From IMG/VR virus record IMGVR_UViG_3300035701_000014: 17,003 nt of DNA. The stretch is one strand, 5' to 3'. Below the pieces are notes generated by a model. It was given only the letters and a program-made list of their open reading frames with translations. It made no database searches and had not been told where the DNA came from. Source of the DNA: a virus. Taxonomy: Duplodnaviria > Heunggongvirae > Uroviricota > Caudoviricetes. The translations under genes were made by a program, and so were the position numbers. Shown piece by piece: positions 3 through 17,003 of this stretch (its first letter is position 1; each line of letters begins with the position of its first letter).

Positions 3-110
3 TCATTGCTAATCTTCCTGACTGGGTTTGCAGGATGGGTAAACCCCCTTGTGCTCCTGATGTTCGGGGTGGTCACAGTGTCATTGTTCTATTGGAGAGG
101 TGGAATCTGA
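3..110 (+). CDS. 3' end of a membrane protein (partial, open at left edge)
   Basis: Frame 3 is open from the edge: SLLIFLTGFAGWVNPLVLLMFGVVTVSLFYWRGGI*, TGA at 108-110. Hydrophobic C-terminal segment. Confidence 0.75.
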   Translation, partial: SLLIFLTGFAGWVNPLVLLMFGVVTVSLFYWRGGI

Positions 111-257
111 TGGTAGGCTCTGGATGGGTCGCCTCTACAATAGGTAAAAAATAGGTAACACAGGGCATGGGAATATATACTGCCAGAACAAAAATGGATT
201 GTCCTAATGTTCCTATTGTATGAGGTGGTTTAAAATGGAAAGTTGCAAGGTGGAATC

Positions 258-3200: not shown

Positions 3201-3293
3201 CCCGAGATTCTGGTGCTGATAGGAGTCCCAGCAGCAATGGCAGCAGTCTGGCTTCTGGCAAGGGCAATCACTTGCGGTGGAATCCTTCCCTAG
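258..3293 (+). CDS. Secreted, C-terminally membrane-anchored glycoprotein: LamG/ConA-like domain + two parallel beta-helix (NosD/CASH-like) modules (1011 aa)
   Basis: ATG 258 follows GGTGG and is preferred to TTG 243. Signal peptide MKKELFLSLFFLVLFGSFVKA. LamG-like motifs (WTFNEGTG, FTIMAWVK, WHQIVAV, IYIDG, FDGIADEIKMWN) at ~321-927. Modules at ~933-2186 and ~2205-3077 have GIYL/NNT-type beta-helix repeats. More than 30 N-x-S/T sequons by eye. Two hydrophobic helices at the C-terminus. Confidence 0.9.
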   Translation: MKKELFLSLFFLVLFGSFVKADPIIVANWTFNEGTGGYANDSTIFGNNCTISNASWVTGLHGSALEFNGFDSYLDCGNDSSLNFGTGDFTIMAWVKYPDVGYQEGFIEKTNSSPIGYEVLLTDSVQLSMWGDLAGATPTGVATTDDSTWHQIVAVRNGTNHSIYIDGVYDNSEDSDIGNTDVIDNLLIGYSPNDDAYFDGIADEIKMWNEAKDDAFILQIYNEENPFNLTDCKRLDLVGATYTVNNDITVSSSPICFDISAEGITLDCQGHTLNGSGSTGNGIYSSGYNYITIKNCNLVGFYDGIYLDTSDSVNITNVSARNGQSGFYLLGMTNSNVSQITAENNFYATSGLDVINSDHNIFTDVNANWNDVGIFMSNATYNSFTNVNASNNLEYGGQPPSGIDLTSGSDYNNFTNVVADNNSPYGIFITDSSYNTFQTVEANFNNQIGINLNYGDYNNFTDVILDTNSFWGIYMEDSIQNTFINTLINDTMGGAYFHWSDSNTFDNVTIQNCGYGIEVDFSGYNTIENSIIQNNAWDGMFLHGAGDIGENNFFNILLNNSVNVYIDPNVNIYPNYFNTTQQAGTRIYSTGIDIGGNYYVGYSDICADGDADGFCDYPLDLETGFACISGFTCGNNTDYLPLSSNGTSNPFNVTDCGTLGISGQNYTMTGDITDSDAYPVCIDIKGDNINLNCEGHTVDGDNATGYIGINIQRNCTGIITSCTEIDDLICGGIEPCCYYFGCDYNGSACNGTTTMPCYSPPFWDGCSMGFSECSLSTPSNVVVHNCTITDWTEAGINVEDASGNRLYNNTLMGNSYDGIALRSAPNNLIYDNWMVDNEYAISLYDNTTTGNYIYNNFLNNTYNTWVDEDVLNNWNVAPQGGIRIYSNGSQIGGNYHIGYSDSCLDINQDGFCDEPYDLWNDSTCTVGVDCSNNVDYYPLSENYTAPPMSTCPPTSYFAGLVVIFVFLSVAVGVMTAFGALTPEILVLIGVPAAMAAVWLLARAITCGGILP

Positions 3294-3306: not shown

Positions 3307-6261
3307 ATGAACAAGACACCCATCTTTGCATTCTTGGTATTGCTGCTAGCCTGCTCCATTGTGCGGGCTACGGACATCTCGAACTGCACGACTCTGGATA
3401 ATGCAAGCGACACTTACTACTTAACTGCAGATATACTCAACAGTTCAGATAATTATTGTATGCTCATCAGAGCAGATAACATCACTCTAGATTGTCAGAA
3501 TCATATAATCGGAGGAAATGGATTTGGTGCTGGCAATTCATACAGTGCTATCGAAGATTTATACGGAAGACCTGAAGGAGATAATCTAACTATCCAAAAC
3601 TGCGTAATTGATGGTTGGAATACTGCAATAAACGCACAAGGGGGAATCAACTATCTCTCGGTGTATAACACAACTGCATCTAATATGTGGTGGGCATTTG
3701 ATTTGAGAGGAGCAAACAACATTTATTTCTATAACATTTCAACGAATCGTTCTTCGGAACTTGACGATAACGCTGGAACTATGGCATTTATGATAGGAGG
3801 CGACACCAATTTCACAGTAGAAAATTCAACAATCTCAAATTATTATCACCCCGTATATATGTGGGGAGATTCCAGTAATGTAACTTTTAGAAATAATGTT
3901 TTCCAGAGTGATAGAAATATTGCCTATTTTGAAGATAACACCGAAACTGGAATTTTCTATAATAATCTATTCAATAACACTGGAAACACTGGATATGAAT
4001 ACTTAACGGGAATGGGGGGAGCAATGTCATATCTTGATTGGAACACTACTAACCAATCAGGCACTCCTATCTATGGCAATGGCATTCAGATAGGTGGCAA
4101 CTACTGGACTTCTTCGCCTATAGGTTATTCGGATACCTGCACTGATGCTGATGTGGATGGCTTCTGCGACCAGCCATTTGACCTTGCAACAGGACTTCCA
4201 TGCACTGCAGGTGTAGATTGCAGCAACAACACAGACTATCTTCCTTTGAGTGGCGATGTTATAGTTAGTCATAATCTATCCGATTGCTATACATTCACAC
4301 CATTTACGCCACAAGGAACTTATACTTTAACATCTGATATAGTCGATAGTTCTACACTTTACTGCATTTATTTTGAACCCAGAATACAAAATATTATTTT
4401 TGACTGTCAAAACCATTTGGTAGACGGACAGCAAATTCCTAATAGCGAAGGAATCTATATCTCAAATCAATATCCCAATCCAACTCTTAACATCACCATC
4501 CAAAATTGTTTCGTAACAGACTGGGATTACGGAGTTGAAGTGGATAGCGATAACACCAGTGTTCAAAATGTAACCGTGTCTAACTCAACAACTGAAAATT
4601 TTGCACTTTGGGGAGGTTGGGACACTTGGGACACTCGAGACTATTTCAATAATCTTACTTCTTATGATTCACTCGGGATGGGGCTAGACCTAGAAGGATA
4701 TTACAATATTCTGGAAAACAGCGATATATCAAACAACCAGCAAGGAATTTATCTATGGACTGATGAGTTTGGCAACAACACAATCAGAAACTGCATAATT
4801 CAAAACAATATTGATTACGGAATAGAAATTGATGCTGCAACAGGCAGTATGATTTACAATAATCTCTTCAACAACACTATCAATGCATTATTTGTCAATG
4901 ATGTTTATGCGAACAACTGGAACACCACAAACCAATCAGGAGCTCGCATCTTCGGGAATGGAACTGACATCGGTGGTAACTTCTGGGCAGACCCTGCGGG
5001 CACAGGATTCTCCCAGACTTGCACTGATGTAGACCACGACGGTTTCTGCGATTGGGCTTATGACTTAACACATTCACCCTGTGACCCGATGACAAACTGC
5101 TCGAACAACACAGACTTCCTACCTTTAAGCGACAACTATTCATCACCAGTTCCACCATCACCATACAGCAACATCACCGACTGCACAGAAATGACAACAC
5201 CAAACCACACTTACTACCTCACGCAGAACATAATCAATACTCCGATGGCATATTGCATGGATGTTCTAGCAGATAACATCACCCTAGATTGCGAAGGGCA
5301 TACCATCGACGGGGACAACAGCAGTTCATTAGTTGGAATCAATGTTTATTATATCAATGACACAACAATCCACAACTGCGTAATCACGAACTGGGTATCC
5401 GCAGGCATTGAATTAACTGCAGCAACAAATACAGTAATTTACAACAACACAATAAACTACAATGACGAGGATGGAATTGCGATATATGCATTTGATGATG
5501 CAACAATCTACAACAACTGGCTCGTCGGAAATGATTACGGAATCTCAATCTATGACGGCGACACAGGAAGCCTCATCTACAATAACTATTTCAACAACCA
5601 ACACGATGCATGGGTTGATACCGACAATCCGAATGACTGGAACACCACCAAGCAAGTAGGCACAAGAATTTATTCCACAGGGACTGACATCGGCGGAAAC
5701 TACTGGGCTGGAGGCGGAACTTGCTCAGGAACAGCAACTCCATGCGGGGATATATCGAATGAGACCGCCTGCAACAATCAGATGTTCTGCTCTTGGTATG
5801 GAGATGGGGCAGGCTCTTGCGAAGATGATATGGGTGCAATGCCATGCTTCTTCTTAAATGGCTATGAATCAGATTGTGAACAGCAACTTGGCTGCACATG
5901 GACTGCTGGCGGGTATTCAGACAACTGCATAGACGCAGACCACGACGGGTTCTGCGACCAGCCTTATGATGCCTATTACGGAGGAGGCTGCACTCTGGGA
6001 GTGGACTGCGGGAACAACACCGATTATCTTCCTTTGGCTGGAGGGTATACGCCACCAACTCCACCAGCATCAACCTGTCCTCCGACAAGTTACTTTGCAG
6101 GTCTGGTAGTCATCTTTGTCTTCCTGTCAGTTGCAGTGGGAGTGATGACAGCCTTTGGTGCATTGACTCCCGAGATTCTGGTGCTGATAGGAGTCCCAGC
6201 AGCAATGGCAGCAGTCTGGCTTCTGGCAAGGGCAATCACTTGCGGTGGAATCCTTCCCTAG
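3307..6261 (+). CDS. Secreted, C-terminally membrane-anchored glycoprotein with three parallel beta-helix (NosD/CASH-like) modules (984 aa)
   Basis: RBS GGTGGTGA upstream. Signal peptide MNKTPIFAFLVLLLACSIVRA. Modules at ~3370-4251, ~4270-5130 and ~5167-6039, each with a TLDC/FDC start motif and ending GGN(Y/F)W..C.D.D.DGFCD..C..C.NNTD(Y/F)LPL. Last 63 aa identical to the upstream paralog. Confidence 0.9.
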   Translation: MNKTPIFAFLVLLLACSIVRATDISNCTTLDNASDTYYLTADILNSSDNYCMLIRADNITLDCQNHIIGGNGFGAGNSYSAIEDLYGRPEGDNLTIQNCVIDGWNTAINAQGGINYLSVYNTTASNMWWAFDLRGANNIYFYNISTNRSSELDDNAGTMAFMIGGDTNFTVENSTISNYYHPVYMWGDSSNVTFRNNVFQSDRNIAYFEDNTETGIFYNNLFNNTGNTGYEYLTGMGGAMSYLDWNTTNQSGTPIYGNGIQIGGNYWTSSPIGYSDTCTDADVDGFCDQPFDLATGLPCTAGVDCSNNTDYLPLSGDVIVSHNLSDCYTFTPFTPQGTYTLTSDIVDSSTLYCIYFEPRIQNIIFDCQNHLVDGQQIPNSEGIYISNQYPNPTLNITIQNCFVTDWDYGVEVDSDNTSVQNVTVSNSTTENFALWGGWDTWDTRDYFNNLTSYDSLGMGLDLEGYYNILENSDISNNQQGIYLWTDEFGNNTIRNCIIQNNIDYGIEIDAATGSMIYNNLFNNTINALFVNDVYANNWNTTNQSGARIFGNGTDIGGNFWADPAGTGFSQTCTDVDHDGFCDWAYDLTHSPCDPMTNCSNNTDFLPLSDNYSSPVPPSPYSNITDCTEMTTPNHTYYLTQNIINTPMAYCMDVLADNITLDCEGHTIDGDNSSSLVGINVYYINDTTIHNCVITNWVSAGIELTAATNTVIYNNTINYNDEDGIAIYAFDDATIYNNWLVGNDYGISIYDGDTGSLIYNNYFNNQHDAWVDTDNPNDWNTTKQVGTRIYSTGTDIGGNYWAGGGTCSGTATPCGDISNETACNNQMFCSWYGDGAGSCEDDMGAMPCFFLNGYESDCEQQLGCTWTAGGYSDNCIDADHDGFCDQPYDAYYGGGCTLGVDCGNNTDYLPLAGGYTPPTPPASTCPPTSYFAGLVVIFVFLSVAVGVMTAFGALTPEILVLIGVPAAMAAVWLLARAITCGGILP

Positions 6262-6269
6262 GTGGTGAT
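6070..6269 (+). repeat. 200-bp perfect direct repeat, copy 2
   Basis: Identical to 3102-3301. Confidence 0.97.
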
Positions 6270-6386
6270 ATGGAATTCATCAGAATGAAGAGCATAAATA
6301 AGAAGAAGATAGTCCCCGAAGAAATACTAGCAGGCAGGGGGCTCATAGGGGAACAGACAATCGGCTCGATAATAGATTTGGGATGA
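6270..6386 (+). CDS. Small hypothetical protein (38 aa), not in ORF track
   Basis: MEFIRMKSINKKKIVPEEILAGRGLIGEQTIGSIIDLG*. RBS GGTGGTGA supplied by the repeat. ATGA overlap with the next gene. Confidence 0.6.
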   Translation: MEFIRMKSINKKKIVPEEILAGRGLIGEQTIGSIIDLG

Positions 6387-6655
6387 GGAACATGGAGAAG
6401 CCAAAGCTTACATTCTTTGAAATGAAGATATGGGAAGACCTCAACGGCAGGGGCGGGGAGCTCACGATAGCAGAAGCCCGCAGGATTTTCGGGGTCAACT
6501 ACAAAATCAAGAAGGAAGAGTTTCCCGTGTTGCTCAAGGAGCTCAAGCAGACCGACATATTCGAAATCTCGAAGAAGAAAATCAAGATAAAGGAATTCGA
6601 GATGATGCAGGAAGCTGGCACGCAGACCTGCGGGGCAAAGCAGCTTCGGATATAA
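6383..6655 (+). CDS. Hypothetical protein, possibly winged-helix DNA-binding (90 aa)
   Basis: Coupled start. Pattern IWEDL..GGELTIAEARRIFG..IKKEEFPVLLKELKQTDIFEI followed by beta-like KKIKIK resembles a wHTH fold. The fold call is weak (inference). Confidence 0.6.
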   Translation: MRNMEKPKLTFFEMKIWEDLNGRGGELTIAEARRIFGVNYKIKKEEFPVLLKELKQTDIFEISKKKIKIKEFEMMQEAGTQTCGAKQLRI

Positions 6656-6778
6656 TCCACCTTTTGGCTAACTGCCCTTCAAAGGCGTAAGGCTGGTTTC
6701 CTGTGTCGCCAAACGCCAGCCGAAAATAAGTGGGGCTGCCAACGGCTTCACTGGTCAAAAACTGCTGGTGGGCGAATC

Positions 6779-6848
6779 ACTGGAAAGCTGACCTTCTGGG
6801 ATATTCTATTTTTCTGGGTAGTTTGAGGCTCGAAGGTAGCCTTCCAGT
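6779..6848. other. Long imperfect inverted repeat / stem-loop in non-coding DNA
   Basis: ACTGGAAAGCTGACCTTC (6779-6796) pairs with GAAGGTAGCCTTCCAGT (6832-6848): 16 bp, one mismatch, one bulge, 35-nt loop. Confidence 0.6.
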
Positions 6849-6850
6849 CT

Positions 6851-6898
6851 GTTTATATACGTTAACTATATATACTACTATAGACCAAGTATATATAC
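6851..6898 (+). promoter_or_regulatory. Archaeal-type promoter with overlapping inverted repeat
   Basis: TTTATATA at 6852-6859, ~50 bp before ATG 6910. Perfect 10-bp IR TATATATACT (6867-6876) / AGTATATATA (6888-6897) spans the expected transcription start. Confidence 0.55.
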
Positions 6899-6909
6899 AC
6901 AGTGGTAAC

Positions 6910-7134
6910 ATGGCAATCGTGAGCTCAGGCAATCAGTTCAATCATCCGACAAAGGAACGGTTACTGGAAAGCATACCCAAGCTGAAGCAAGACCTTATGG
7001 CATGCAGTGCGCTCCCAACGAGCCAGAACAGGAGCGATGAGGAAATCGAGAGGATGTCTTTCAATGAGCTGAGATTGTATCACGGCATCCTGCTCGGATT
7101 CTGGCGGTTATATAACTTCGGAAAGTTCTACTAA
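6910..7134 (+). CDS. Hypothetical protein (74 aa)
   Basis: ATG 6910 after GTGG. The track's upstream extension (6730) runs through AT-rich promoter DNA and is unlikely to be coding. Confidence 0.7.
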   Translation: MAIVSSGNQFNHPTKERLLESIPKLKQDLMACSALPTSQNRSDEEIERMSFNELRLYHGILLGFWRLYNFGKFY

Positions 7135-7146
7135 GAGGTGGTATGA

Positions 7147-7278
7147 ATGGGAAAACTAGATAGGCAAGGCAGGAATCCCGAGTATCCAAACTTCAACTGG
7201 AAGAGAGAGTGCAATAACTGCCCCCACAATCAGGGGTGCACGACCAGCAAGCTTCAGCTTTGCTCCCACAGGAGTTGA
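7147..7278 (+). CDS. Small Cys-rich protein (43 aa), not in ORF track
   Basis: GAGGTG + 6 nt + ATG. MGKLDRQGRNPEYPNFNWKRECNNCPHNQGCTTSKLQLCSHRS* (CxxC-x5-C-x7-C). Confidence 0.7.
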   Translation: MGKLDRQGRNPEYPNFNWKRECNNCPHNQGCTTSKLQLCSHRS

Positions 7279-7282
7279 TTGA

Positions 7283-7471
7283 TTGAAGAAGATAAGAACT
7301 ATGGAAGAGTTTGAAAAGGAGTATCTACCAGAAGACTACAAGAAGAGACAAGAGGCACTCAAAGCAAAGGCAAAGCACAAAGGGGTGAACCCATATAAAC
7401 GAAGAACACCTGAAGATGAGTTGGTTGACCTGCTGATGTTCGCAGACTTATTGACTAGCAGAGGTGTGTGA
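7283..7471 (+). CDS. Hypothetical protein (62 aa, TTG start)
   Basis: GGAG upstream. MEEFEKEYLPEDY motif. Its 3' end carries the next RBS and TGA abuts the next ATG. Confidence 0.7.
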   Translation: MKKIRTMEEFEKEYLPEDYKKRQEALKAKAKHKGVNPYKRRTPEDELVDLLMFADLLTSRGV

Positions 7472-7600
7472 ATGGAAGGGGAATTATTTGATATAAGAGG
7501 GGCTCGAAAGAATCCGAAGCTGAAGGACAGAAAGAAGGTGGATGCGGAGTGGCTGGAGAAAGCAAAGATACTGATGAAAAAGAAAAGGGTGGTCTCATGA
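7472..7600 (+). CDS. Small basic protein (42 aa), not in ORF track
   Basis: GAGGTG upstream, TGAATG junction. MEGELFDIRGARKNPKLKDRKKVDAEWLEKAKILMKKKRVVS*. ATGA overlap with the TOPRIM gene. Confidence 0.7.
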   Translation: MEGELFDIRGARKNPKLKDRKKVDAEWLEKAKILMKKKRVVS

Positions 7601-8451
7601 AATATCAAGACATCGTTGAAAGAGTCAACAAGGTCTTTGTAGACTACTCGGCATACCTGCCATTGACTGTCAGGCAAATCTATTACAGGCTCGTTTCTGA
7701 TTTGGTGATTGCGAACAGCATGCAATCCTACAAGCAGTTCGACAGGATACTCACCAAGGCAAGGTGGAACGAAGAGATTGAAGCGTCCAACATCGTGGAC
7801 AGAAGCAGGACACTTCATCTGCATACTGTAGGGAAATATGCCACCCCAGAAGAGTTTCTTGACCGACTCGAGACCGCATTCCAGTTCAACATCTGGGAAG
7901 ACCAGCCCAACTGGCTTGAGGTCTGGATTGAGAAGGATGCCCTGAGCGAGGTCTTCAATACTGTGCTCAAGCCGTTTGACATAACGCTTCTGGTCAGCAG
8001 GGGCTACACATCATTCTCATTCATCAAGGAAACAGCGAACAGGCTCGGGGACATTGACAAGCCTATTTATATACTATACTTCGGAGACCTTGATGCTTCA
8101 GGAGTCGACATCTACCGCTATATAACCGAGAGCCTTGTGAAGATGGGGGTCGAGCCCACAGTTGAGAGAATCGCCTTGACCCATGAGCAGGTAGACCAAC
8201 ACAAGCTTCCGCCAATGCCAGTGAAGATGAGCGACAGCAGAGCCTCTGGGTTCATCAGCCAGTATGGGAACAACGCATGGGAGCTCGATGCCCTGCCTCC
8301 AGATGTGCTGCAGAAACTGATAAGGCAGTCCATCGCAGAATACTTTGATGCGGATGCGTTCACTGAGACCAAGGAAAGGCAGGAGCTCGTCCAAAGCAAG
8401 CTGGGGAAGTTTTTCCAGTCTTTCGGAAAAAAACCAGCTAGGAAGAAGTAG
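7597..8451 (+). CDS. Topo VI subunit A / Spo11-like TOPRIM protein (284 aa)
   Basis: Start at the ATGA overlap (7597) after GGTGG. LTVRQIYY matches the 5Y-CAP tyrosine motif (RDIYY in Spo11). TOPRIM motifs VWIEKDAL, SRGY and LYFGDLDASG. Confidence 0.8.
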   Translation: MKYQDIVERVNKVFVDYSAYLPLTVRQIYYRLVSDLVIANSMQSYKQFDRILTKARWNEEIEASNIVDRSRTLHLHTVGKYATPEEFLDRLETAFQFNIWEDQPNWLEVWIEKDALSEVFNTVLKPFDITLLVSRGYTSFSFIKETANRLGDIDKPIYILYFGDLDASGVDIYRYITESLVKMGVEPTVERIALTHEQVDQHKLPPMPVKMSDSRASGFISQYGNNAWELDALPPDVLQKLIRQSIAEYFDADAFTETKERQELVQSKLGKFFQSFGKKPARKK

Positions 8452-8457
8452 TATATA
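8447..8457 (+). repeat. 11-bp direct repeat AGTAGTATATA, left of HNH gene
   Basis: Identical to 8978-8988. Both copies contain the TAG stop of the preceding gene. Confidence 0.7.
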
Positions 8458-8475
8458 AACAAATGGTGATACTGG

Positions 8476-8982
8476 ATGAGAATTTGCTCTGTTGAGGATT
8501 GTGGAAAGAAACATCATGCAAAGGGACTATGCGAAAAGCATTATCTCCAGCGATATTACGAAGATGGGGAATACTACAAAACACACAAAAAGCAGATGAA
8601 CGATTCAGCCAAAAAATGGCTCAAGAAAAATAGAAAGAAAGAACGATTACAAGTCATCTTCCATTATTCGCAAGGCAAGAACTGCTGTGCCTGCTGCGGA
8701 GAAAATATAATAGAATTTTTGACAATCAACCATATCAATGGAGGAGGCAACAAACACCGAAAAGAAGTAGGTGCAAGAAGTGGTGAGAAATTTTACAAAT
8801 GGCTCATCAAGAATAACTTCCCTAAAGGTTTCAATGTCCTATGCATGAATTGTAATATGGCTACAGGAATCTACGGTATTTGTCCTCACCAAATAACAAA
8901 GAATCTAAAACAAATAGACCTGAAAGAGCTGAAGAGTAAGCTGAACAATCTCAGCACCGAGCAAACCCAAACTACCCAGTAG
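8476..8982 (+). CDS. HNH-family endonuclease with N-terminal Zn finger (168 aa)
   Basis: N-terminal CSVEDC..HHAKGLCEKHY, typical of phage HNH proteins. CACCGE..LTINHINGGG..LCMNCN..CPH beta-beta-alpha/Zn motif. RBS GGTGA + 6 nt. Confidence 0.8.
   Translation: MRICSVEDCGKKHHAKGLCEKHYLQRYYEDGEYYKTHKKQMNDSAKKWLKKNRKKERLQVIFHYSQGKNCCACCGENIIEFLTINHINGGGNKHRKEVGARSGEKFYKWLIKNNFPKGFNVLCMNCNMATGIYGICPHQITKNLKQIDLKELKSKLNNLSTEQTQTTQ
8901..8957 (+). repeat. 57-bp imperfect direct repeat, copy 1 (HNH C-terminal tail)
   Basis: 46/57 identical to 9137-9193. NLKQIDLKELKSKLNNLST vs NLEQIDLNELKSRLDSLST. Confidence 0.9.
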
Positions 8983-8988
8983 TATATA
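8978..8988 (+). repeat. 11-bp direct repeat AGTAGTATATA, right of HNH gene
   Basis: Identical to 8447-8457. Confidence 0.7.
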
Positions 8989-9131
8989 TAACCGAATAAA
9001 AAACTAGGGTCTAAGAATAAAAACCATGCTCCCAGAATATACCACTCCGAGGTGGTATATATACTAGACTTTATACTTGGGGCATAGCTTTATATATACC
9101 ACAAATCCTATATATACTCGAGGTGGTTATA
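8983..9131 (+). promoter_or_regulatory. Repeat-rich promoter region of the DUF932 operon
   Basis: TTTATATA at 9089-9096. RBS GAGGTGG at 9120-9126. IRs 9037-9045/9052-9060 and 9052-9063/9091-9102. GAATAAAAA direct repeat at 8994 and 9015. Confidence 0.65.
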
Positions 9132-10109
9132 ATGAGGAATCTGGAACAAATAGACCTGAATGAGCTGAAGAGCAGACTGGACTCTTTGAGCACTGCTTCT
9201 GAGAAGCCAGTAGTCGTGGTTGAGAAGGATAACACTCCTAGACCAGCCCTTGAGTTCAAAGCAATAGTGAACGACAAGGACGGGACTATCCACGCAATCG
9301 TTTCAAAGGGATATACGTTAATCCAGCACAAGGCTGCTTTCTCCGCAGTTGTGGATGCACTTGCAACCATAAGGTCTAATGACAAAGTCAGGGCAACAGT
9401 AGTTGAAGAGAAGGGCAGAGCATGGTTAACCGTAACCTTTCCAGAGATAAAGGTGGATGACGGAGAGGCAGGCATAGAGCTCGGCTTCAAGGTGAAGAAC
9501 TCCTATGATGCTACCACTGCATTGACTTACAGTGGCACGCAGAGAAAGAGCAAATGGGAAGAGAGCCATTTTGAATTCTTCGGTTACAGGCTCGCCTGCA
9601 TGAACGGCATGACAATGAGAATCCCGATGGACTTCACAAAGCCAGTGGTCGAGAAGAAGGATGCGAAGGTCGGCGACATAGTAAATGTCAAACTGGAGAA
9701 AGTGGAGGCGGGCATACAGACAACAACCGAGGCAGCAGCAAGTGGTTACATCAGGCACTACGGTGACAAGGCATTGCTGAACCTTGAGAGGATGAGGCAG
9801 GCATTCCTGCAGCTCCCAGAGATAAAGAGGCAGCTCGAGCAGACTATCCAAACAGTCAGGGCAATCAGCCTAACAACTGAGGAAGCAGGGAAGAGGCTGA
9901 AGGAGCTCGGGTTCGGTGAGAGGGTAGTCAACGACATCATGGAGAGGTTCAAGATTGAGGAGCAGACACAGTGGGGTCTCTACAATTCGATAACCACAGA
10001 GGCAACACACGGCAGGATGAAAAATGGCACGAACAAGAGCATACTCAGGGAAGAGGAGATGCTCGGGAAGGCAAGCAAGCTACTGGTGATGGAGGTGAGA
10101 GCTCACTGA
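9132..10109 (+). CDS. DUF932-family protein (325 aa)
   Basis: GAGGTG + 6 nt + ATG 9132. Motifs VSKGYTLIQH..F, GRAWLTVTFP, FKVKNSYD, YRLACMNGM and TQWGLYNSIT match my recollection of DUF932/DUF945 proteins. Confidence 0.8.
   Translation: MRNLEQIDLNELKSRLDSLSTASEKPVVVVEKDNTPRPALEFKAIVNDKDGTIHAIVSKGYTLIQHKAAFSAVVDALATIRSNDKVRATVVEEKGRAWLTVTFPEIKVDDGEAGIELGFKVKNSYDATTALTYSGTQRKSKWEESHFEFFGYRLACMNGMTMRIPMDFTKPVVEKKDAKVGDIVNVKLEKVEAGIQTTTEAAASGYIRHYGDKALLNLERMRQAFLQLPEIKRQLEQTIQTVRAISLTTEEAGKRLKELGFGERVVNDIMERFKIEEQTQWGLYNSITTEATHGRMKNGTNKSILREEEMLGKASKLLVMEVRAH
9137..9193 (+). repeat. 57-bp imperfect direct repeat, copy 2 (DUF932 N-terminus)
   Basis: 46/57 identical to 8901-8957, same reading frame relative to the peptide. 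Confidence 0.9.
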
Positions 10110-10132
10110 GCTCTCTTCCCCAAACGGGGAGG
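10097..10132. promoter_or_regulatory. 19-bp palindrome plus RBS-occluding hairpin
   Basis: GAGAGCTCA-C-TGAGCTCTC (10097-10115) lies over the stop codon. CTTCCCC-AAAC-GGGGAGG (10115-10132) overlaps the next RBS. Confidence 0.5.
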
Positions 10133-10140
10133 TGAAACCC

Positions 10141-11052
10141 ATGACAGATTATGAAATCCAAATGGAAAAGGAAAAGCAGGCTCAGTTGTCTGTGTGCAAC
10201 AAAGAGATTGGCAGGTTGAACGCTGAGATAGGCAATCTCCAGCATATAATCAGGTCGCAGGACTACAGGCAGAAGAAGGGGAAATTCATCAGGCTGACCG
10301 CAATCAAAGACCACATAGCCGATGTGCTGAGCGACTATAACACTGATGTCCAAAAGACTTTCTCAGAGTCCAACTATTCTGGAGCGGAAAAGGCAAGCGA
10401 TACCACAAGGGAGTTCATCAAGGCTGCGGGTCTGAAGAAGCTTAGCGAGACTTCAAAGAAATACATCGGGCAGGAGATTATCCGCAAGCTGACTCATACC
10501 AGTGAATCGTTTGGTGATTCCAGACCCGACCAGATAAAGCAGCTTGACGCAATCCAGAAAAAGCTGGGGGGCGAGATAGACCAGCTCGGGGAGAACATCT
10601 TCGGCTGGGGCAACAGCGTAGAAGCCAAGCTAGAAGATTTGCAGGATGAGCTCAAGAAGAAGAATGCCCGCAAGGAAGTCCTCGAAAGCAAGGAGCTCTT
10701 CGGGCAGGAGTTCGCAAAGAAGCAGGAGCAGGTAAAAGTCGAGGCAGAAAGGAGAGTGAGGCGTGAATCAATCACTAATCTAGACACACCCGATGCAACA
10801 GCCGAAGCTGGCAAAATCATTGCGATGCCAGAGTTCAAGAAGGTTCACGACCCGATGCTGGAGGATGTCGAGAAGCTGCTCAAGGACAAGGGATATGAGA
10901 AAACCCTAACCTGCGAGCATTGCGGGGAAGAGATAGAAACAGACAAGGCGATACTGGATGCGAATGCCCCCGAATACAGTGAAGTGCATGTCTTCGACAA
11001 GCTCGAGTGCCAGAGGGCGTATCACAAGGAGAAGAGCAAGAGGGGATACTGA
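10141..11052 (+). CDS. Coiled-coil protein with C-terminal putative Zn-binding motif (303 aa)
   Basis: GAGGTG + 6 nt + ATG 10141. Long charged helical segments. C-terminal CEHC...HVFDKLEC. Confidence 0.8.
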   Translation: MTDYEIQMEKEKQAQLSVCNKEIGRLNAEIGNLQHIIRSQDYRQKKGKFIRLTAIKDHIADVLSDYNTDVQKTFSESNYSGAEKASDTTREFIKAAGLKKLSETSKKYIGQEIIRKLTHTSESFGDSRPDQIKQLDAIQKKLGGEIDQLGENIFGWGNSVEAKLEDLQDELKKKNARKEVLESKELFGQEFAKKQEQVKVEAERRVRRESITNLDTPDATAEAGKIIAMPEFKKVHDPMLEDVEKLLKDKGYEKTLTCEHCGEEIETDKAILDANAPEYSEVHVFDKLECQRAYHKEKSKRGY

Positions 11053-11396
11053 TGGCAAAAACAAAATGCATCTGCAAGGTAATCAAGGGCGGATGGTTCT
11101 TTGATTTCGGTAATGGACTTGAGGAAGACAATCAGCTTGGAGAGATGATTGAAAAAAAGGCATGGCTCTTTGTGCATGAGGCACAACGGAAGAAAGTGGA
11201 ATGGGTAAAGAACATCCACAATGCCGTCCTGCTGTTGAGCACCATAGCGAGCAGCCCGAAGCTGAACAAGTGGTTCTTGGGTCAGATAAGCGACATAACA
11301 GGAAAGAAATGCAAGGCATGGGAAGTTCGCTTGAGTATGACCCTCATAGACAGCAAGTGTCCAGTTCATGGTAAAAGAGATGGTAGCAATGGATAA
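11052..11396 (+). CDS. Hypothetical protein with split CxC...CPxHG motif (114 aa)
   Basis: TGATG overlap start at 11052. KCIC at the N-terminus, KCPVHG at the C-terminus. Confidence 0.75.
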   Translation: MAKTKCICKVIKGGWFFDFGNGLEEDNQLGEMIEKKAWLFVHEAQRKKVEWVKNIHNAVLLLSTIASSPKLNKWFLGQISDITGKKCKAWEVRLSMTLIDSKCPVHGKRDGSNG

Positions 11397-11625
11397 ATGC
11401 GTCTCATGCAAAAAACGGGAAGCAGACTTCGGAGTAGATGGGGAAGAACTCTGTGCCGAATGCACCATAGAGCTGGCAGAAGATAGAATCCGAGACAGAA
11501 AGAATTTCAAGGTATGCCCATACTGCCACAAGAAGATAGACATGAATCATTTCCTTTTCCATATTGCAACGGAGCATCGGAAGGAACATGAAGAGGCACA
11601 GAAACGAGGTGGTTCGAATGAGTAG
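11389..11625 (+). CDS. Double zinc-finger protein (78 aa)
   Basis: CVSC-x14-CAEC and CPYC-x11-H-x4-H (C2H2-like). Confidence 0.75.
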   Translation: MDKCVSCKKREADFGVDGEELCAECTIELAEDRIRDRKNFKVCPYCHKKIDMNHFLFHIATEHRKEHEEAQKRGGSNE

Positions 11626-11995
11626 TTTCATAGTAGGTGACATTACCATAGACAGATTTATGAGTGTGGTTTGGAAAAACTCGAGTGAAGAAGGACTTAC
11701 AAAATTGGGAAGAAACCTTCTGAGAATGAATGTAGATGCTACCGAACAAAGATACCCAACACATCCCTATCTGGATGAAGATGAGAGGGAGCAGCGAATA
11801 AGAAATTACAAGTTTCATTTTCAGGAAGTCACACCAATACAAGCTCTAAAATCCATGAGTTGTTTTCTTTATCAATGTAGCGAAGGGACAATACCAAAAA
11901 GAGCGTTATACAAGCAGATGCGTAAAAAAGAAACCGAGCTGGCTTTCAGCATAGTAGATGCTATGCCAGAATATGACAAAGCGGAATGGGGTTAA
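11618..11995 (+). CDS. Phage-type conserved hypothetical protein (125 aa)
   Basis: GAGGTG + 6 nt + ATG 11618. Motifs VTPIQALK..CFLYQCSE and MPEYDKAEWG resemble an uncharacterised phage/plasmid family (recollection). Confidence 0.75.
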   Translation: MSSFIVGDITIDRFMSVVWKNSSEEGLTKLGRNLLRMNVDATEQRYPTHPYLDEDEREQRIRNYKFHFQEVTPIQALKSMSCFLYQCSEGTIPKRALYKQMRKKETELAFSIVDAMPEYDKAEWG

Positions 11996-12011
11996 ACAAG
12001 AGGTGGTATGA

Positions 12012-12668
12012 ATGAATAAAAAATGTGTGTGTTGTGAGGAAAGGAAGCCTAAAGATGAGATGAGAGTAGTGACCGTAGGGGAAGACAAAGGCAAGCCGAT
12101 ATGCGAGACTTGCTATGATGAGGACGAGCCACAAGCGACGGTCTTCTACAACGGAGATAAGGAAGAGCCAAAGTTCATAGGCAATTATACCAATGACACG
12201 GAAGGCGACTTCACGCTCAAGTGGGTCTCAACCGATGGCTGGAGAGGATATTACGATGTGACACCCAACGAGAAGTGGGTCAGGATAGTAGACGACTGCA
12301 TACTCTCATACTCAGAAGATGCAGAGCAGCTCCACGAGATGCAGGAGAAGCTCGAGGAGTTCCTGAAAAGCAGGGACATCGAGTTCGCAAAAGTATTCGC
12401 AAGGACTAGCAATTGCTTCTCGACAGGATATGATTTCTTTGTGGAGAAAGGCGAGGAAGACGAAGCGAAGTGCATCGTAGCAATCCTGAAGCTCAAATAC
12501 AGAGACCCAGACAGGTTCAACATGACGGCACTGACTGGCAAGGAATCAAGCAAGGAGTTCGACCAGAAGGACAAACTCCTGCTGGAAGCATTCAGGAGAA
12601 TCGAAAAAGGCGAGAGTTTCGACGACATTAAAGATGACATCCTGAAGAGGGTTGAGAAGGTGGTATGA
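12012..12668 (+). CDS. Hypothetical protein with N-terminal Zn finger (218 aa)
   Basis: CVCC...CETC. WVSTDGWRGYY motif. Strong RBS. Confidence 0.85.
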   Translation: MNKKCVCCEERKPKDEMRVVTVGEDKGKPICETCYDEDEPQATVFYNGDKEEPKFIGNYTNDTEGDFTLKWVSTDGWRGYYDVTPNEKWVRIVDDCILSYSEDAEQLHEMQEKLEEFLKSRDIEFAKVFARTSNCFSTGYDFFVEKGEEDEAKCIVAILKLKYRDPDRFNMTALTGKESSKEFDQKDKLLLEAFRRIEKGESFDDIKDDILKRVEKVV

Positions 12669-13007
12669 ATGGCGGGTATAACGATGCAGGAAAACATGGC
12701 GTGCATGTTCTATGCACAATGGTATAAGGAAGACGTGAGCCCGAAGCTGACACCAGAGCAGAAAGAGAAGCTGCTGAAGAAGCTCTCGGAACTGAGCTTG
12801 AGGATGCCGATATGGGAGATAGACAAAGTTCCACTAGACGACTTCCCAGAGCTGAAGCCGTTCTCCAACCTTCCAACATTCAGTGGCTTGCAGTTATATA
12901 CGGTGATGTCAGAGGTATTCAACGAAATATCAGCAACCAAGCTCGAGACCCCGTATATGCATTTTCCTGAGAAGTATAAGAGTATAAAAGGTAGGGGTCA
13001 TGGTTAA
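12669..13007 (+). CDS. Hypothetical protein (112 aa)
   Basis: AGGTGGTATGA-ATG junction abutting the previous stop. Confidence 0.75.
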   Translation: MAGITMQENMACMFYAQWYKEDVSPKLTPEQKEKLLKKLSELSLRMPIWEIDKVPLDDFPELKPFSNLPTFSGLQLYTVMSEVFNEISATKLETPYMHFPEKYKSIKGRGHG

Positions 13008-13042
13008 AATAGGTCAAAAGAATTGAAAGTGGAGGTGGGAGC

Positions 13043-13234
13043 ATGAATAAGGATGATACAAAGCACGGAGTCGTGGTCAAGGAAAAGAAGACTGGGAAGA
13101 TTGTCCAGTTCTTGGAATGCGAGGGGATGAAGTGCCTCTACATCCTTAGCGGTGTGAGGAAGCATCTCGGCAGCGATTACCAAGCAGATGAAGATATTAT
13201 GCTTACGAAAGATTTGCAAGGGGTAGGACAATGA
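13043..13234 (+). CDS. Hypothetical protein (63 aa)
   Basis: GGAGGTGG RBS. ATGA overlap with the next gene. Confidence 0.7.
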   Translation: MNKDDTKHGVVVKEKKTGKIVQFLECEGMKCLYILSGVRKHLGSDYQADEDIMLTKDLQGVGQ

Positions 13235-13407
13235 GGGAATGGCAAATAATTATGAATGGGCAAGAATGGCGAGTTCTAGCAAGCCAGCCATATACCGCAG
13301 TGTGGAAAGCAATTAGAGCGTATATGCAAGGCAGGAGAGAACAAGGTGCTAAACATCCATTCCCAAAGACCGAAGTTGGAATATTCATAAAAGAGGTGAA
13401 AAGATGA
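13231..13407 (+). CDS. Small hypothetical protein (58 aa), not in ORF track
   Basis: MREWQIIMNGQEWRVLASQPYTAVWKAIRAYMQGRREQGAKHPFPKTEVGIFIKEVKR*. ATGA overlaps at both ends, filling the gap exactly. Confidence 0.75.
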   Translation: MREWQIIMNGQEWRVLASQPYTAVWKAIRAYMQGRREQGAKHPFPKTEVGIFIKEVKR

Positions 13408-13640
13408 TAACCCAAAAGGCACAAGTATTGTTTGCACCAGACGGGGAGCACTTCCAAGTAATCAAGAAAGGTGAGACGGGGCGGATGTGGGATTACTTCA
13501 ATTTCAATCATGACATCAGGGTGCAGATAGCCCTGAACCCACAGGCAAAGTTCAGGTTGATTGGCGAGAGCGGAATAGTAATCGGCGAGCTCCCCAGATT
13601 CAAGTTCACTGGGGTCGAGCTCCCAAATGGAGGTAGGTGA
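13404..13640 (+). CDS. Hypothetical protein (78 aa)
   Basis: GAGGTG upstream, ATGA overlap. Confidence 0.7.
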   Translation: MITQKAQVLFAPDGEHFQVIKKGETGRMWDYFNFNHDIRVQIALNPQAKFRLIGESGIVIGELPRFKFTGVELPNGGR

Positions 13641-13645
13641 TACAC

Positions 13646-14113
13646 ATGAAAAGTTTTGTAGTATATTTTCACGGGAAGATTAATGTCGAAGCAGAGGACT
13701 GCGATGATGCTTGCGGTCAGGCATACGACAAGTTGCATGAAGCCTGTGTGGGAGAATTCTTCATAGACAGTGAGGAAGACGAGGGCGAAGTCGAGGAAGA
13801 GGAGGATGAGACCACAGAGCAGAAGGTTGTGCCAGAAGACGAAAGGATAAGACAACTGAATCTTGAGTTAGAAGTATCCCTCCCAGCAATCAAAATCATA
13901 GACAAGAACACATTGAAAATCAAGACCAGCGATTGGCAAGGGCAACATGAACATACCATCACAAGGCAGGACTTTTACAACTATATACGTTGCGAGTCTG
14001 GCAGCATGAGTGGACTCAGGAGTCTGGGTTCAGTAGATGGCGATTGGAGAATGATTGACAGCATCGCACAGGATGTCGCAGGAGTATTCAAGAAGATTGA
14101 TGAGGTGAGATGA
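13646..14113 (+). CDS. Hypothetical protein with acidic linker; N-terminus weakly DpnD/PcfM-like (155 aa)
   Basis: AGGTGA + 5 nt + ATG 13646. INVEAEDCDDACGQA resembles the VEAxSxEEA motif (weak). Acidic run DSEEDEGEVEEEEDE. Confidence 0.75.
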   Translation: MKSFVVYFHGKINVEAEDCDDACGQAYDKLHEACVGEFFIDSEEDEGEVEEEEDETTEQKVVPEDERIRQLNLELEVSLPAIKIIDKNTLKIKTSDWQGQHEHTITRQDFYNYIRCESGSMSGLRSLGSVDGDWRMIDSIAQDVAGVFKKIDEVR

Positions 14114-14499
14114 TGACGTATGATATAGATTTGAAAGGCAAAGAAACGTGCTTCGGAATACACGGTCTGGGCTATGGTGCAAACATGAGCAGCCCGATAG
14201 ACCTATGGGCGATAATAAAGAAGGCAATCAAGCGGGATAACTTCAGGCTGGGAGATGGCTACCTGAGTGCGGAGGAAGTAACCAAAGTCCTCAAGGTGCT
14301 GATACCCGAGTTCGACCAGAAACTAAAAGAGGCATACAAGAAATGGAAAGTCGACTACATCGGCGGGGACATAGAGTTTTGGTTTCCAGAAAAGACCAAA
14401 GTGCAACAGAGAGAGAAGACCAACTTCGAAGTGACAAAGAGAATGATACTGATACTGTTGGTTGCGAACTTCAAGAAGAGAGGGGTGCATTTTCATTAA
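14113..14499 (+). CDS. Hypothetical protein (128 aa)
   Basis: GAGGTG + 5 nt + ATG 14113 (alternative start 14110). Confidence 0.75.
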   Translation: MTYDIDLKGKETCFGIHGLGYGANMSSPIDLWAIIKKAIKRDNFRLGDGYLSAEEVTKVLKVLIPEFDQKLKEAYKKWKVDYIGGDIEFWFPEKTKVQQREKTNFEVTKRMILILLVANFKKRGVHFH

Positions 14500-14509
14500 G
14501 GTGATTGTG

Positions 14510-14668
14510 ATGAAAACAAAAGAAATAAGAAAAGATTGGAAGTGGGGGATAGGAAAAGCCATAGCTACAATTGGGGTTTGGGTAGTGTGCGGTCAAGTGG
14601 TTATTGCTGGGCATTCAGGATGGATACTTGCAATTGCAGGATTAGCAACCGCAGTTATATGGGCATGA
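14510..14668 (+). CDS. Small membrane protein (52 aa)
   Basis: AGGTGA upstream of ATG 14510. Two short hydrophobic segments. Confidence 0.7.
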   Translation: MKTKEIRKDWKWGIGKAIATIGVWVVCGQVVIAGHSGWILAIAGLATAVIWA

Positions 14669-14678
14669 GGTGGTATAG

Positions 14679-15008
14679 ATGAAATGGGTCGTAGAATTTG
14701 AAGTGCCCGAAGACAGGCAATTCGAGAACACGGAGAATTACGTAACCAACTTCGAAGAAGGAGGGTTGGTTCGTTATCACTACGGAGTCCCGCATGTCCT
14801 CCTGCCTTGGAAGTTGATAGAGAAAAAGAAGGTATGCTGGAACTGCGGAAAGGACTTCGTTATGAAGGAGCACATGATGTATTTCTACGGGGTCTGCGAT
14901 GAATGTTATGCAAAGGGATACAGAAGCAAGGACACCAAGAAGGAGGTCGACGCATTCAATCTCGGGAAGAAAGTCGGGGCAGAAGAAGAAAAGGAAAAGG
15001 TTGATTGA
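14679..15008 (+). CDS. Zn-ribbon protein (109 aa)
   Basis: GAGGTG + 6 nt + ATG. CWNC-x16-CDEC. Confidence 0.8.
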   Translation: MKWVVEFEVPEDRQFENTENYVTNFEEGGLVRYHYGVPHVLLPWKLIEKKKVCWNCGKDFVMKEHMMYFYGVCDECYAKGYRSKDTKKEVDAFNLGKKVGAEEEKEKVD

Positions 15009-15009
15009 A

Positions 15010-15450
15010 ATGAAAAACCAAAACGAGAAATTATTCAGGGCATACTGGCGTGATAGGGCAGATGTCTTCATCCTAGCCAAGACCAAAGTGGAAGCACTGG
15101 TGAAATACAAGAAGTATCTGGGCTACGGTGATTCTGCCATTGCATCCAAAGAGGAAAAAGGGGAGTGGTCATCGACATTCGCAACTCTGAAGATGGATGA
15201 GAGCAGGTTAGCCCCGATAGCAAGGATGTTAGCCAGTGCCAGCAGAGAAGGGGTAGCGATAATTCCTGAAGAGCTTACAAAGATTCCAACATGGGAGGCA
15301 TACTTTGACGGCAAGTTTTTCTTCAAGAGGGACTTAGAAGAGATGAACAAGACGGAAGAAATCTACGGGAACTCTGAGAAGTATAAAGAACTGAAAGAGA
15401 AGCTAACCCAAATGGTAGAAGATTTCAAAGAAGATGATGAGGTGAGATGA
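15010..15450 (+). CDS. Hypothetical protein (146 aa)
   Basis: ATG 15010 lies one base after the previous stop. The track's 14899 start overlaps the upstream gene. Confidence 0.75.
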   Translation: MKNQNEKLFRAYWRDRADVFILAKTKVEALVKYKKYLGYGDSAIASKEEKGEWSSTFATLKMDESRLAPIARMLASASREGVAIIPEELTKIPTWEAYFDGKFFFKRDLEEMNKTEEIYGNSEKYKELKEKLTQMVEDFKEDDEVR

Positions 15451-15810
15451 ATGGAAAAAGAATTGGCAAAGCATGAGAATGCATTCATACATATATACAA
15501 GAAGGATATATACAAGCTTTTCTTGTGGCTCTGCATAACCCTTCTTGCCAGCACGACATTATATGCTGTCTGGTTCGTAGCACAGGCAACATACGACAAG
15601 CTGAACCCTATCCTCACAAATATGTTCCAGACGCAGAAGGATTGTCCAAATTCGGGTATGCCTTGGTTTAAACACCCCTGCAGTGAAGAAGAGAAGGAAT
15701 ATTATCAGTCAGCTTGGACGACAGCATTTATGATAGTTTTCATAATTGCTTTGATTGGTCTTTGGTATTTGATAGCGGTAATGTTGGAGTGGTTAGCTCA
15801 GTATGAATAG
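15451..15810 (+). CDS. Two-TM membrane protein (119 aa)
   Basis: TGAATG junction. Two hydrophobic helices flank a CPNSGMPWFKHPC loop. Confidence 0.8.
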   Translation: MEKELAKHENAFIHIYKKDIYKLFLWLCITLLASTTLYAVWFVAQATYDKLNPILTNMFQTQKDCPNSGMPWFKHPCSEEEKEYYQSAWTTAFMIVFIIALIGLWYLIAVMLEWLAQYE

Positions 15811-15827
15811 AAGAGGTGATGTAGACG
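15803..15827 (+). repeat. Gene-junction repeat, copy 1 (stop + RBS + start position)
   Basis: ATGAATAGAAGAGGTGA (17 bp exact) then TG-TAG-ACG. 22/25 identical to 16159-16183. Confidence 0.85.
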
Positions 15828-16166
15828 AAAACCGAAAACAAAAGTCAGACACTGGATGAAGCAGCAAAAAAAGTAGCTGCAGGAACTACTGACATGAAAC
15901 AAGCAGCTATGGCTATCCATGTGTTCGGCAAGGCATACTATTGCAAGAAGCACAAAATCTATCTGATAAACGTGCAGGCACTGCACCTGCATTTTGAACT
16001 GGAGCATAGGGACGAGTATGAAGTGCTGGAGAAAAAAGGCGGAAAGTTATTGAGGGACGGGAAAGACCCGATGGATACATTCAAAGAGAAACTGACAGAA
16101 CTTGCAGGCAAGGAAACTGCAGAAAAGATGATGACTGAAATAGGTAAGCTAAGGACGAATGAATAG
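15825..16166 (+). CDS. Hypothetical protein, probable ACG start (113 aa; 90 aa from ATG 15894)
   Basis: GAGGTG + 6 nt + ACG, in frame with ATG 15894 with no intervening stop. ATG 15894 has no RBS. Contains YYCKKH motif. Confidence 0.65.
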   Translation, partial: TKTENKSQTLDEAAKKVAAGTTDMKQAAMAIHVFGKAYYCKKHKIYLINVQALHLHFELEHRDEYEVLEKKGGKLLRDGKDPMDTFKEKLTELAGKETAEKMMTEIGKLRTNE

Positions 16167-16183
16167 AAGAGGTGAGCTAGATG
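16159..16183 (+). repeat. Gene-junction repeat, copy 2
   Basis: ATGAATAGAAGAGGTGA then GC-TAG-ATG. Confidence 0.85.
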
Positions 16184-16492
16184 AATATGGAAAACGAGAA
16201 AGACGCAAAGTCTGAGAAGCCTGTAAAGAAAAATATGTTTGATACGGAAGTCACCAACACAACTCCGACCATAGACAAGGTGACAATAGACAAGCCGACA
16301 ATAGACTCGATGCTGAAGTTTGACATGCCGAAGATAGACCAGATGGAGAAGCTCGACATGCCGAAGATAGACAACAGTAACTTCTTCGGTTTCAAAGCAC
16401 CTGCAAAGAAGGAAGAAAAGAAGGAGGCGGAGAAACCAGAAGAGGAAGAGAAGAAGGAGGCGGAAGAACGAATAGAAACAGAGGTGAGGTAA
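16181..16492 (+). CDS. Low-complexity, likely disordered protein with internal peptide repeats (103 aa)
   Basis: TID x3, DMPKID x2, EEKKEAE x2. TAA abuts the next ATG. Confidence 0.75.
   Translation: MNMENEKDAKSEKPVKKNMFDTEVTNTTPTIDKVTIDKPTIDSMLKFDMPKIDQMEKLDMPKIDNSNFFGFKAPAKKEEKKEAEKPEEEEKKEAEERIETEVR
16266..16464 (+). repeat. In-frame coding tandem repeats
   Basis: 15-nt units at 16266, 16281 and 16296. GACATGCCGAAGATAGAC at 16322 and 16355. 21-nt near-identical unit at 16411 and 16444. Confidence 0.85.
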
Positions 16493-17003
16493 ATGGATTA
16501 TGAATTATTGAAGTTCGGGACATCGGCACTTTATGACTACCAAAAAACCCGTATCGGTCTGGTCAACAGGATGAGAAACCTGATACGGGTCAGGTTCTTG
16601 GGTCTAGAGCCGTTCAAGGTAGAGGATAAGAAAGAGGAAGATGAGAAGGCACACGGAGAATATGATGACAAGTCCGTGAAGGAACTGAAGGGGATAGCGA
16701 AGAAGCTCGGGAAGCTTAGTGAGGAAGAGGAAGGGATAATCAACCAGCTAGAGGAGCTCTCAATATCTTCCGAGATGATGGAAGAGAAATATAAGAAATG
16801 GGTCGAGGAGCAGGTAATCTACGAACCCATCTGGACTGAGTGGCTATCAAAGGTCAAGGGAATCGGCAAGCTGCTCACAGCGAACCTGCTATACTACTAC
16901 GGCTACTGCGAGAACTTCGACACGGTAAGCAAACTCTGGGCATACTCGGGATGGCACACGGTTGACGGCAAAGCCCCGAAGAGGAAGCACGGGGAGCAGA
17001 TGA
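16493..17003 (+). CDS. IS110-Tnp/Nop-like domain protein lacking RuvC, candidate TasA-type (partial, 170 aa visible, open at right edge)
   Basis: GAGGTGA RBS, TAAATG junction, 170 codons with no stop. LYDYQKTRIGLVNR coiled-coil start. EPIWTEWLSKVKGIGKLLTANLL (HhH GIG) and FDTVSKLWAYSG..VDGKAPKRKHGE match the IS116/IS110/IS902 C-terminal domain. No DEDD domain upstream. Confidence 0.8.
   Translation, partial: MDYELLKFGTSALYDYQKTRIGLVNRMRNLIRVRFLGLEPFKVEDKKEEDEKAHGEYDDKSVKELKGIAKKLGKLSEEEEGIINQLEELSISSEMMEEKYKKWVEEQVIYEPIWTEWLSKVKGIGKLLTANLLYYYGYCENFDTVSKLWAYSGWHTVDGKAPKRKHGEQM

Follow-up and report, generated by a model that had tools for sequence, protein, structure and literature searches.

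TIGR-Tas systems were described in 2025, and more than 20,000 loci are known. Arrays of the dual-repeat type adjoin a tas gene and consist of two alternating repeats of 8–12 nt with 9-nt spacers; each repeat has UG (box D) at its start and CCA (box C) at its end, and the terminal edge repeats are truncated (PMC12045711). Published TIGR arrays usually end with a terminator. Among the described systems, FpTIGR of Flavonifractor plautii (PMC12045711) has a solo protein of coiled coil plus Nop domain without a nuclease, a type that occurs in viruses, and an adjoining same-strand array of 36-nt units with two 9-nt UG...CCA repeats, 9-nt spacers and truncated end edges. The locus analysed here is like FpTIGR in all of these features, as judged from the published description rather than from the FpTasA sequence, and differs from it in a ~40-residue insertion at the tip of the coiled coil, in a DnaJ-type zinc ribbon within the Nop domain, and in that no terminator was detected after the array. 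The best solved relative is TaTasR of Thermoproteota archaeon LB_CRA_1 (9MTY, the TasR coordinate set of Faure et al.), which belongs to the same dual-repeat array type with 9+9-nt spacers and whose Nop domain is 36–37% identical to that of the protein considered here. TaTasR cleaves both strands and has a RuvC nuclease of ~110 aa at its N-terminus, whereas our protein starts at the coiled coil; TaTasR also has a Trp where our protein and TasH have the processing Tyr. SpTasH of Salicola phage CGphi29 (9W03, 21KL and others) shares the Nop domain but has an N-terminal HNH nuclease, and its residues Y289 and H296 are reported to mature the pre-tigRNA (bioRxiv 10.64898/2026.09.09.750476). A TasA has been described as a reversible RNA-guided repressor that binds target DNA in vitro, with no cleavage seen; it differs from the present case in coming from a stem-loop system, and the repressor role rests on that one preprint (bioRxiv 10.64898/2026.09.09.750476). 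The IS110 recombinases (IS621, 8WT6; ISCro4, 9T56) have a distantly related coiled coil and Nop-like domain, but they also have a DEDD/RuvC domain, a serine loop, a single bridge RNA and IS ends, where the present locus has a tandem guide array instead.

The window, by which we mean the whole 17,003-nt stretch of DNA that was analysed, ends inside an open reading frame that is very probably the start of tasA, the nuclease-free effector gene of a dual-repeat TIGR-Tas system in a virus-like element from sediment. The frame is still open at the last nucleotide. Its continuation is found on L021, a 12,758-nt Logan contig that was retrieved by exact look-up of the 103-aa protein encoded immediately upstream of tasA. 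Positions 1–10764 of L021 equal window positions 6240–17003 with 0 mismatches over 10,764 nt, and the contig continues for 1,994 nt more; a window or window-equivalent coordinate is the L021 coordinate + 6239. The array and the last 134 codons of tasA lie outside the window and are taken from this second assembly of the identical sequence. Three sediment DNA runs also carry the region as short contigs of 3–6x depth that end at 16920, and exact 55-mer scans of viral and metagenome contig collections gave no match to the window region. The features of the locus and of the rest of the window are listed in Table 1.

Table 1. Features of the tasA locus and of the window; coordinates are those of the window, or window-equivalent beyond 17003, unless L021 or residues are named.
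Feature	Position	Strand	Description and basis
Two adjacent genes for NosD/right-handed beta-helix proteins, ~1,000 aa each	243–3293, 3307–6261		one also Laminin_G_3
Three consecutive ORFs	7549–8451, 8476–8982, 9123–10109		phage-type "DNA topoisomerase" (phrog_6247, E 9e-67), free-standing HNH endonuclease, DUF932 protein
103-codon ORF upstream of tasA	16181–16492		TAA at 16490–16492
Shine-Dalgarno-like sequence GAGGTGAGG	16481–16489	+	just 5' of the tasA ATG; read from the sequence
tasA, 5' part	16493–17003	+	codons 1–170 of 304; ORF call, 9MTY match, AF2 model, identical contig L021
tasA, complete	16493–17407 (L021 10254–11168)	+	304 codons, intact
Visible tasA: coiled-coil helix 1	residues 3–36		
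Visible tasA: helical tip insertion	residues ~37–76		
Visible tasA: coiled-coil helix 2	residues 77–108		
Visible tasA: Nop RNA-binding domain, first half			contains KVKGIG, SKLWAYSG, DGKAPKRKHGE
Window edge	17003	+	beyond it: remainder of tasA to 17407, 29-nt gap, array, next gene
TIGR array	17437–17913 (L021 11198–11674)	+	same strand as tasA; parsed on L021
Gene for 69-aa membrane protein	starts at 17920		7 nt after the array

The tasA ATG directly abuts the TAA of the upstream ORF, so that a non-coding leader in which an IS end or a bridge RNA might lie is absent. The frame is not a chance one, as its 170-aa translation matches PHROG family phrog_4285 with an E-value of 8e-17, and this alignment begins at position 23 of the 277 positions of the profile, too near its start for an N-terminal domain to have been lost. 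The initial annotation had read the ORF as running off the edge of the window, as beginning directly with the coiled-coil helix and as continuing past its AYxG motif without a serine, and these readings stand: an AF2 model of residues 1–170 (pLDDT 91) places the first long helix almost at the N-terminus, and the motifs that had been quoted are all present in the translation (YDYQKTRIGLVNR at residue 14, KVKGIG at 120, SKLWAYSG at 146, followed by WHTVDGKAPKRKHGE). The ORF upstream of tasA contains in-frame 15/33-nt tandem repeats at 16265–16472, which encode an MPKID-like peptide repeat, as well as a Lys/Glu-rich tail; it has no family match, and the upstream ORFs have no Pfam match.

That the protein is a Tas protein, as had been proposed from its motifs, is seen at the level of both sequence and structure. 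A profile built from the window fragment and eight relatives matches TasR (9MTY) with an E-value of 4.5e-62 and SpTasH with 2.5e-27, and the IS110 recombinases ISCro4 and IS621 with only 0.02–0.03 (IS621, 0.03). The 170-aa fragment by itself matches 9MTY with an E-value of 2e-14; the full 304-aa protein matches 9MTY with 7.7e-35 and TasH with 8.7e-10, and by itself it matched no IS110 structure. The AF2 model of the fragment consists of the two long helices of the coiled coil (Table 1) and, after them, the beginning of the Nop domain, and its best structural neighbours are TasR, TasH, Nop5 and Prp31. For the closest relative (P0007, which is 92% identical to the window protein over ~85 shared residues), a model of its C-terminal 216 aa finds 9MTY first in a Foldseek search (E 1e-11, TM 0.66), then eight TasH chains, and IS110 proteins only at E-values of at least 0.01 (range 0.01–0.1, TM 0.42–0.48); the top 11 matches are all TasR or TasH. 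The order of the parts, coiled coil before Nop domain, is that of the Tas proteins, and the coiled coil is predicted to mediate dimerisation. The protein starts 13 residues before the YDxQ helix, in an alignment its N-terminus coincides with those of solo-Nop relatives, and Pfam finds no HNH or RuvC nuclease family in the 304 aa; the protein is therefore of the nuclease-free TasA type, which agrees with the earlier assignment. In the family alignment Tyr276 and His292 fall in the columns of SpTasH Y289 and H296, the Tyr-His loop being 9 residues longer here than in SpTasH.

Two parts of the protein are additions to this common plan. The insertion at the tip of the coiled coil lies at a position where 11 of 62 parsable relatives (~1/6) also have insertions, and a zinc ribbon of the DnaJ type (CxxCxGxG) is found inside the Nop domain at residues 217–234. 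A weak resemblance to a Rho_N/HeH-type helix pair had been suggested for residues 57–75 of the tip insertion. This suggestion gains no support from Pfam, where at E-values up to 10 no Rho_N or SAP match is found but only one to SAM_BAF (E 0.029), or from an Atlas feature search of residues 38–92, which gave nothing at or above 0.9, although the AF2 model does show a helix-loop-helix there (helices 59–71 and 77 onward).

The array beyond the end of tasA keeps strictly to an 18-nt register and is made up of 13 units of 36 nt, each consisting of a 9-nt edge repeat TGCGAGCCA, a 9-nt spacer A, a 9-nt loop repeat TGnAAnCCA and a 9-nt spacer B, and its 27 repeats contain no indel. The edge repeat is exactly TGCGAGCCA in 11 of the 13 units, with TG kept in 12, CC in all 13 and the final A in 12, while the loop repeat fits TG-n-A-n-n-CCA in every unit, TG and CCA being invariant. 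The terminal edge repeats are degenerate, the first (GAACAGCCA) being truncated at its 5' side and the last (TGCGAGGCG) at its 3' side. An array just past position 17003, composed of 36-nt units that each have a pair of conserved short repeats and a pair of variable 9-nt spacers, is what the initial annotation had predicted from the fragment, and the match to that anatomy is exact. The array matches the published dual-repeat TIGR architecture except that no terminator was detected; neither a terminator-like nor a sigma-70 promoter-like site was found flanking it. No comparable array occurs inside the 17-kb window on either strand (a chain of 4 arose in 0 of 200 shuffles), and no Rfam family matches the array. 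An ORF of 162 codons runs through it (L021 11196–11684, window-equivalent 17435–17923) and is not accepted as a gene. Pfam finds no match for it, the repeats are free of stop codons in its frame, and we estimate that such an open frame would arise by chance in ~8% of cases; across the arrays of the closest relative (L001) and of L002 no ORF is called, although part of the L005 array is covered by one. This ORF is almost certainly an artefact of the stop-free repeats.

Similar arrays accompany relatives of the gene. Arrays of 35–36-nt period adjoin it on four related contigs (L001, L002, L005 and L007), and among viral loci in IMG/VR an array lies beside the gene in 7 of 12 distinct loci (13 were returned, one of which is the L002 contig again), many of them sharing the TGCGAGCCA repeat. 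A tblastn search of GenBank phages gave no match, and a scan of viral contigs with the single sequence gave no relative. The relatives' loci are phage-like, with terminase, portal and methyltransferase genes, and no nuclease gene is conserved beside tasA across them. Some relatives (P0003–P0006) have an extra N-terminal DEDD-like domain of ~110 aa and would be of the TasR type. The accessory parts of the Tas family are highly modular. We note that two other relatives, P0001 (from L007) and P0010 (from L005), have an insertion of ~70 aa with Cys pairs directly after the WAYxG motif. The L007 locus has short TIGR units upstream of its tas gene (9429–9500) and a long downstream array (10463–11111) that is interrupted and shifts register.

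L001 comes from another sample, and its flanks are 91–93% identical to those of L021. Its array (L001 1507–1767) has 7 units as against 13 in L021. Three of the L001 units correspond to L021 units 1, 6 and 7, in the same order and with 2, 1 and 0 mismatches, respectively, and all other pairs of units between the two arrays differ at 8–17 of 18 positions. The presence of three common units in order, with the rest unrelated, indicates that the arrays change by whole units, and we tentatively suggest that TIGR arrays in this virus lineage may be undergoing renewal unit by unit. How TIGR spacer pairs are gained and lost was named as an open question by the discoverers of these systems. The tasA gene of L001 (564–1467) has a 2-nt deletion in the coiled-coil insertion and a second indel near its 3' end; it is called as two pieces of 74 and 216 aa, and the conserved His-containing C-terminus is lost. 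These breaks may reflect decay or an assembly error.

By analogy with the published TasA, TasR and TasH systems, the array would be transcribed together with tasA, and a TasA dimer would bind the repeats at their UG (box D) and CCA (box C) termini. Cuts within the edge repeats would then release 36-nt tigRNAs from the precursor, and because Tyr276 and His292 are kept in alignment with SpTasH Y289 and H296, TasA itself is the probable processing enzyme. The two spacers of each tigRNA would pair with opposite strands of an 18-bp site, spacer A with one and spacer B with the other. Since the complex has no nuclease, it would be expected to bind and bend DNA and to block transcription (or replication) of its targets in the host or in rival elements instead of cutting them. 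The most likely function by this analogy is thus RNA-guided DNA binding without cutting, and its role is probably repression. Mapping of the spacer pairs had been proposed as a way to find such targets; comparisons with the element itself, with the collected loci and with IMG/VR yielded chance-level matches only. In the 19 kb of the element that are visible, the 13 pairs, tried in both strand arrangements and with gaps of 0–2, gave 0 matches at up to 2 mismatches and 2 matches at 3 mismatches, against 1.1 for shuffled spacers; the spacers of four relatives' arrays likewise gave only chance-level matches against all collected loci. Two exact scans of IMG/VR with the conserved units gave 5 stretches (4 of them distinct, one similar to another) and 1 match, respectively. 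None of these is in a related context, their number is about that expected by chance for an 18-mer, and one lies inside a palindrome.

The ORF might instead be a truncated remnant of an IS110-family transposase without any guide-RNA function, and two observations point that way: residues 117–154 match the IS110 C-terminal family PF02371 weakly (E 0.005), and the PHROG label of the family to which the fragment belongs is "transposase". The PF02371 scores of 17.6 bits (for the match just given) and 16.9 bits are, however, both below the 21.3-bit cut-off, and the resemblance to Tas proteins is tens of orders of magnitude stronger than that to IS110. The gene is no remnant in the genome that contains it, where the ORF is intact over 304 codons, and the family to which it belongs has 8,723 cluster representatives at E ≤ 1e-3 and 897 at E ≤ 1e-30. 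An N-terminal DEDD/RuvC-like domain is absent, the protein beginning at the coiled coil. The catalytic serine of IS110 proteins presumably follows the AYxGL motif, a position that we take from IS621, and the visible residues after AYSG contain no serine but read WHTVDGKAPKRKHGEQMNWN. There is neither a leader for a bridge RNA nor an IS end: upstream the stop codon abuts the ATG, and downstream lie the array and then the next viral gene. The outcomes that had been named beforehand as speaking against a guide-RNA system were a catalytic serine with IS ends, a truncated pseudogene, and a lack of arrays or structured ncRNA near the gene and its homologues; what is found is no such serine in the visible residues, no room for IS ends, an intact ORF, and a TIGR array both here and beside relatives. 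As far as sequence can tell, the reading as an IS110 remnant is already refuted, and we regard the chance that it is correct as negligible.

If the locus is accepted as a TIGR-TasA system, it could still serve a purpose other than transcriptional repression, such as aiding the segregation, integration or exclusion of the element through RNA-guided bending or tethering of DNA, or through blocking the replication of rival elements. Faure et al. list options of this kind and TasA is sometimes found in an operon with ParB (PMC12045711), and no self or other target was found here that points to a regulated promoter. The sole experimentally supported function of a TasA so far is, on the other hand, reversible repression together with DNA binding (bioRxiv 10.64898/2026.09.09.750476), and we consider a different role unlikely, though a good deal less so than the suggestion that the TasA complex brings about cleavage by recruiting a separately encoded nuclease. 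A candidate for the latter is at hand in the free-standing HNH endonuclease of the element (Table 1), and the two clade-specific insertions in the protein, the coiled-coil tip and the zinc ribbon, might be thought of in connection with recruitment. That gene is nonetheless 7.5 kb away from tasA, the relatives' loci have no conserved nuclease gene beside tasA, and the published TasA gave no cleavage (bioRxiv 10.64898/2026.09.09.750476), so that nuclease recruitment seems highly improbable. RNA-guided DNA binding without cutting, probably with repression as its outcome, is the reading that we favour.

The remainder of the window encodes, all on one strand, two NosD/beta-helix proteins, a topoisomerase-like protein, an HNH endonuclease and a DUF932 protein. 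The NosD/beta-helix proteins may serve the element in receptor binding or as adhesins, and the source virus is environmental and probably archaeal.

The locus belongs as a regular member to the dual-repeat TIGR-TasA systems, a kind described in 2025, and it leaves the known picture of the TIGR-Tas family unchanged; it adds one well-resolved natural TIGR-TasA locus, with an intact effector and 13 guides. A fragment of 170 aa suffices to recognise TIGR-TasA systems. The practical use of the locus lies in an effector that is compact at 304 aa and keeps the residues for self-processing, and in two related arrays that document turnover by whole units. If renewal of this kind is indeed taking place, the pair of arrays on L021 and L001 could offer a natural case in which to study the gain and loss of TIGR spacer pairs.
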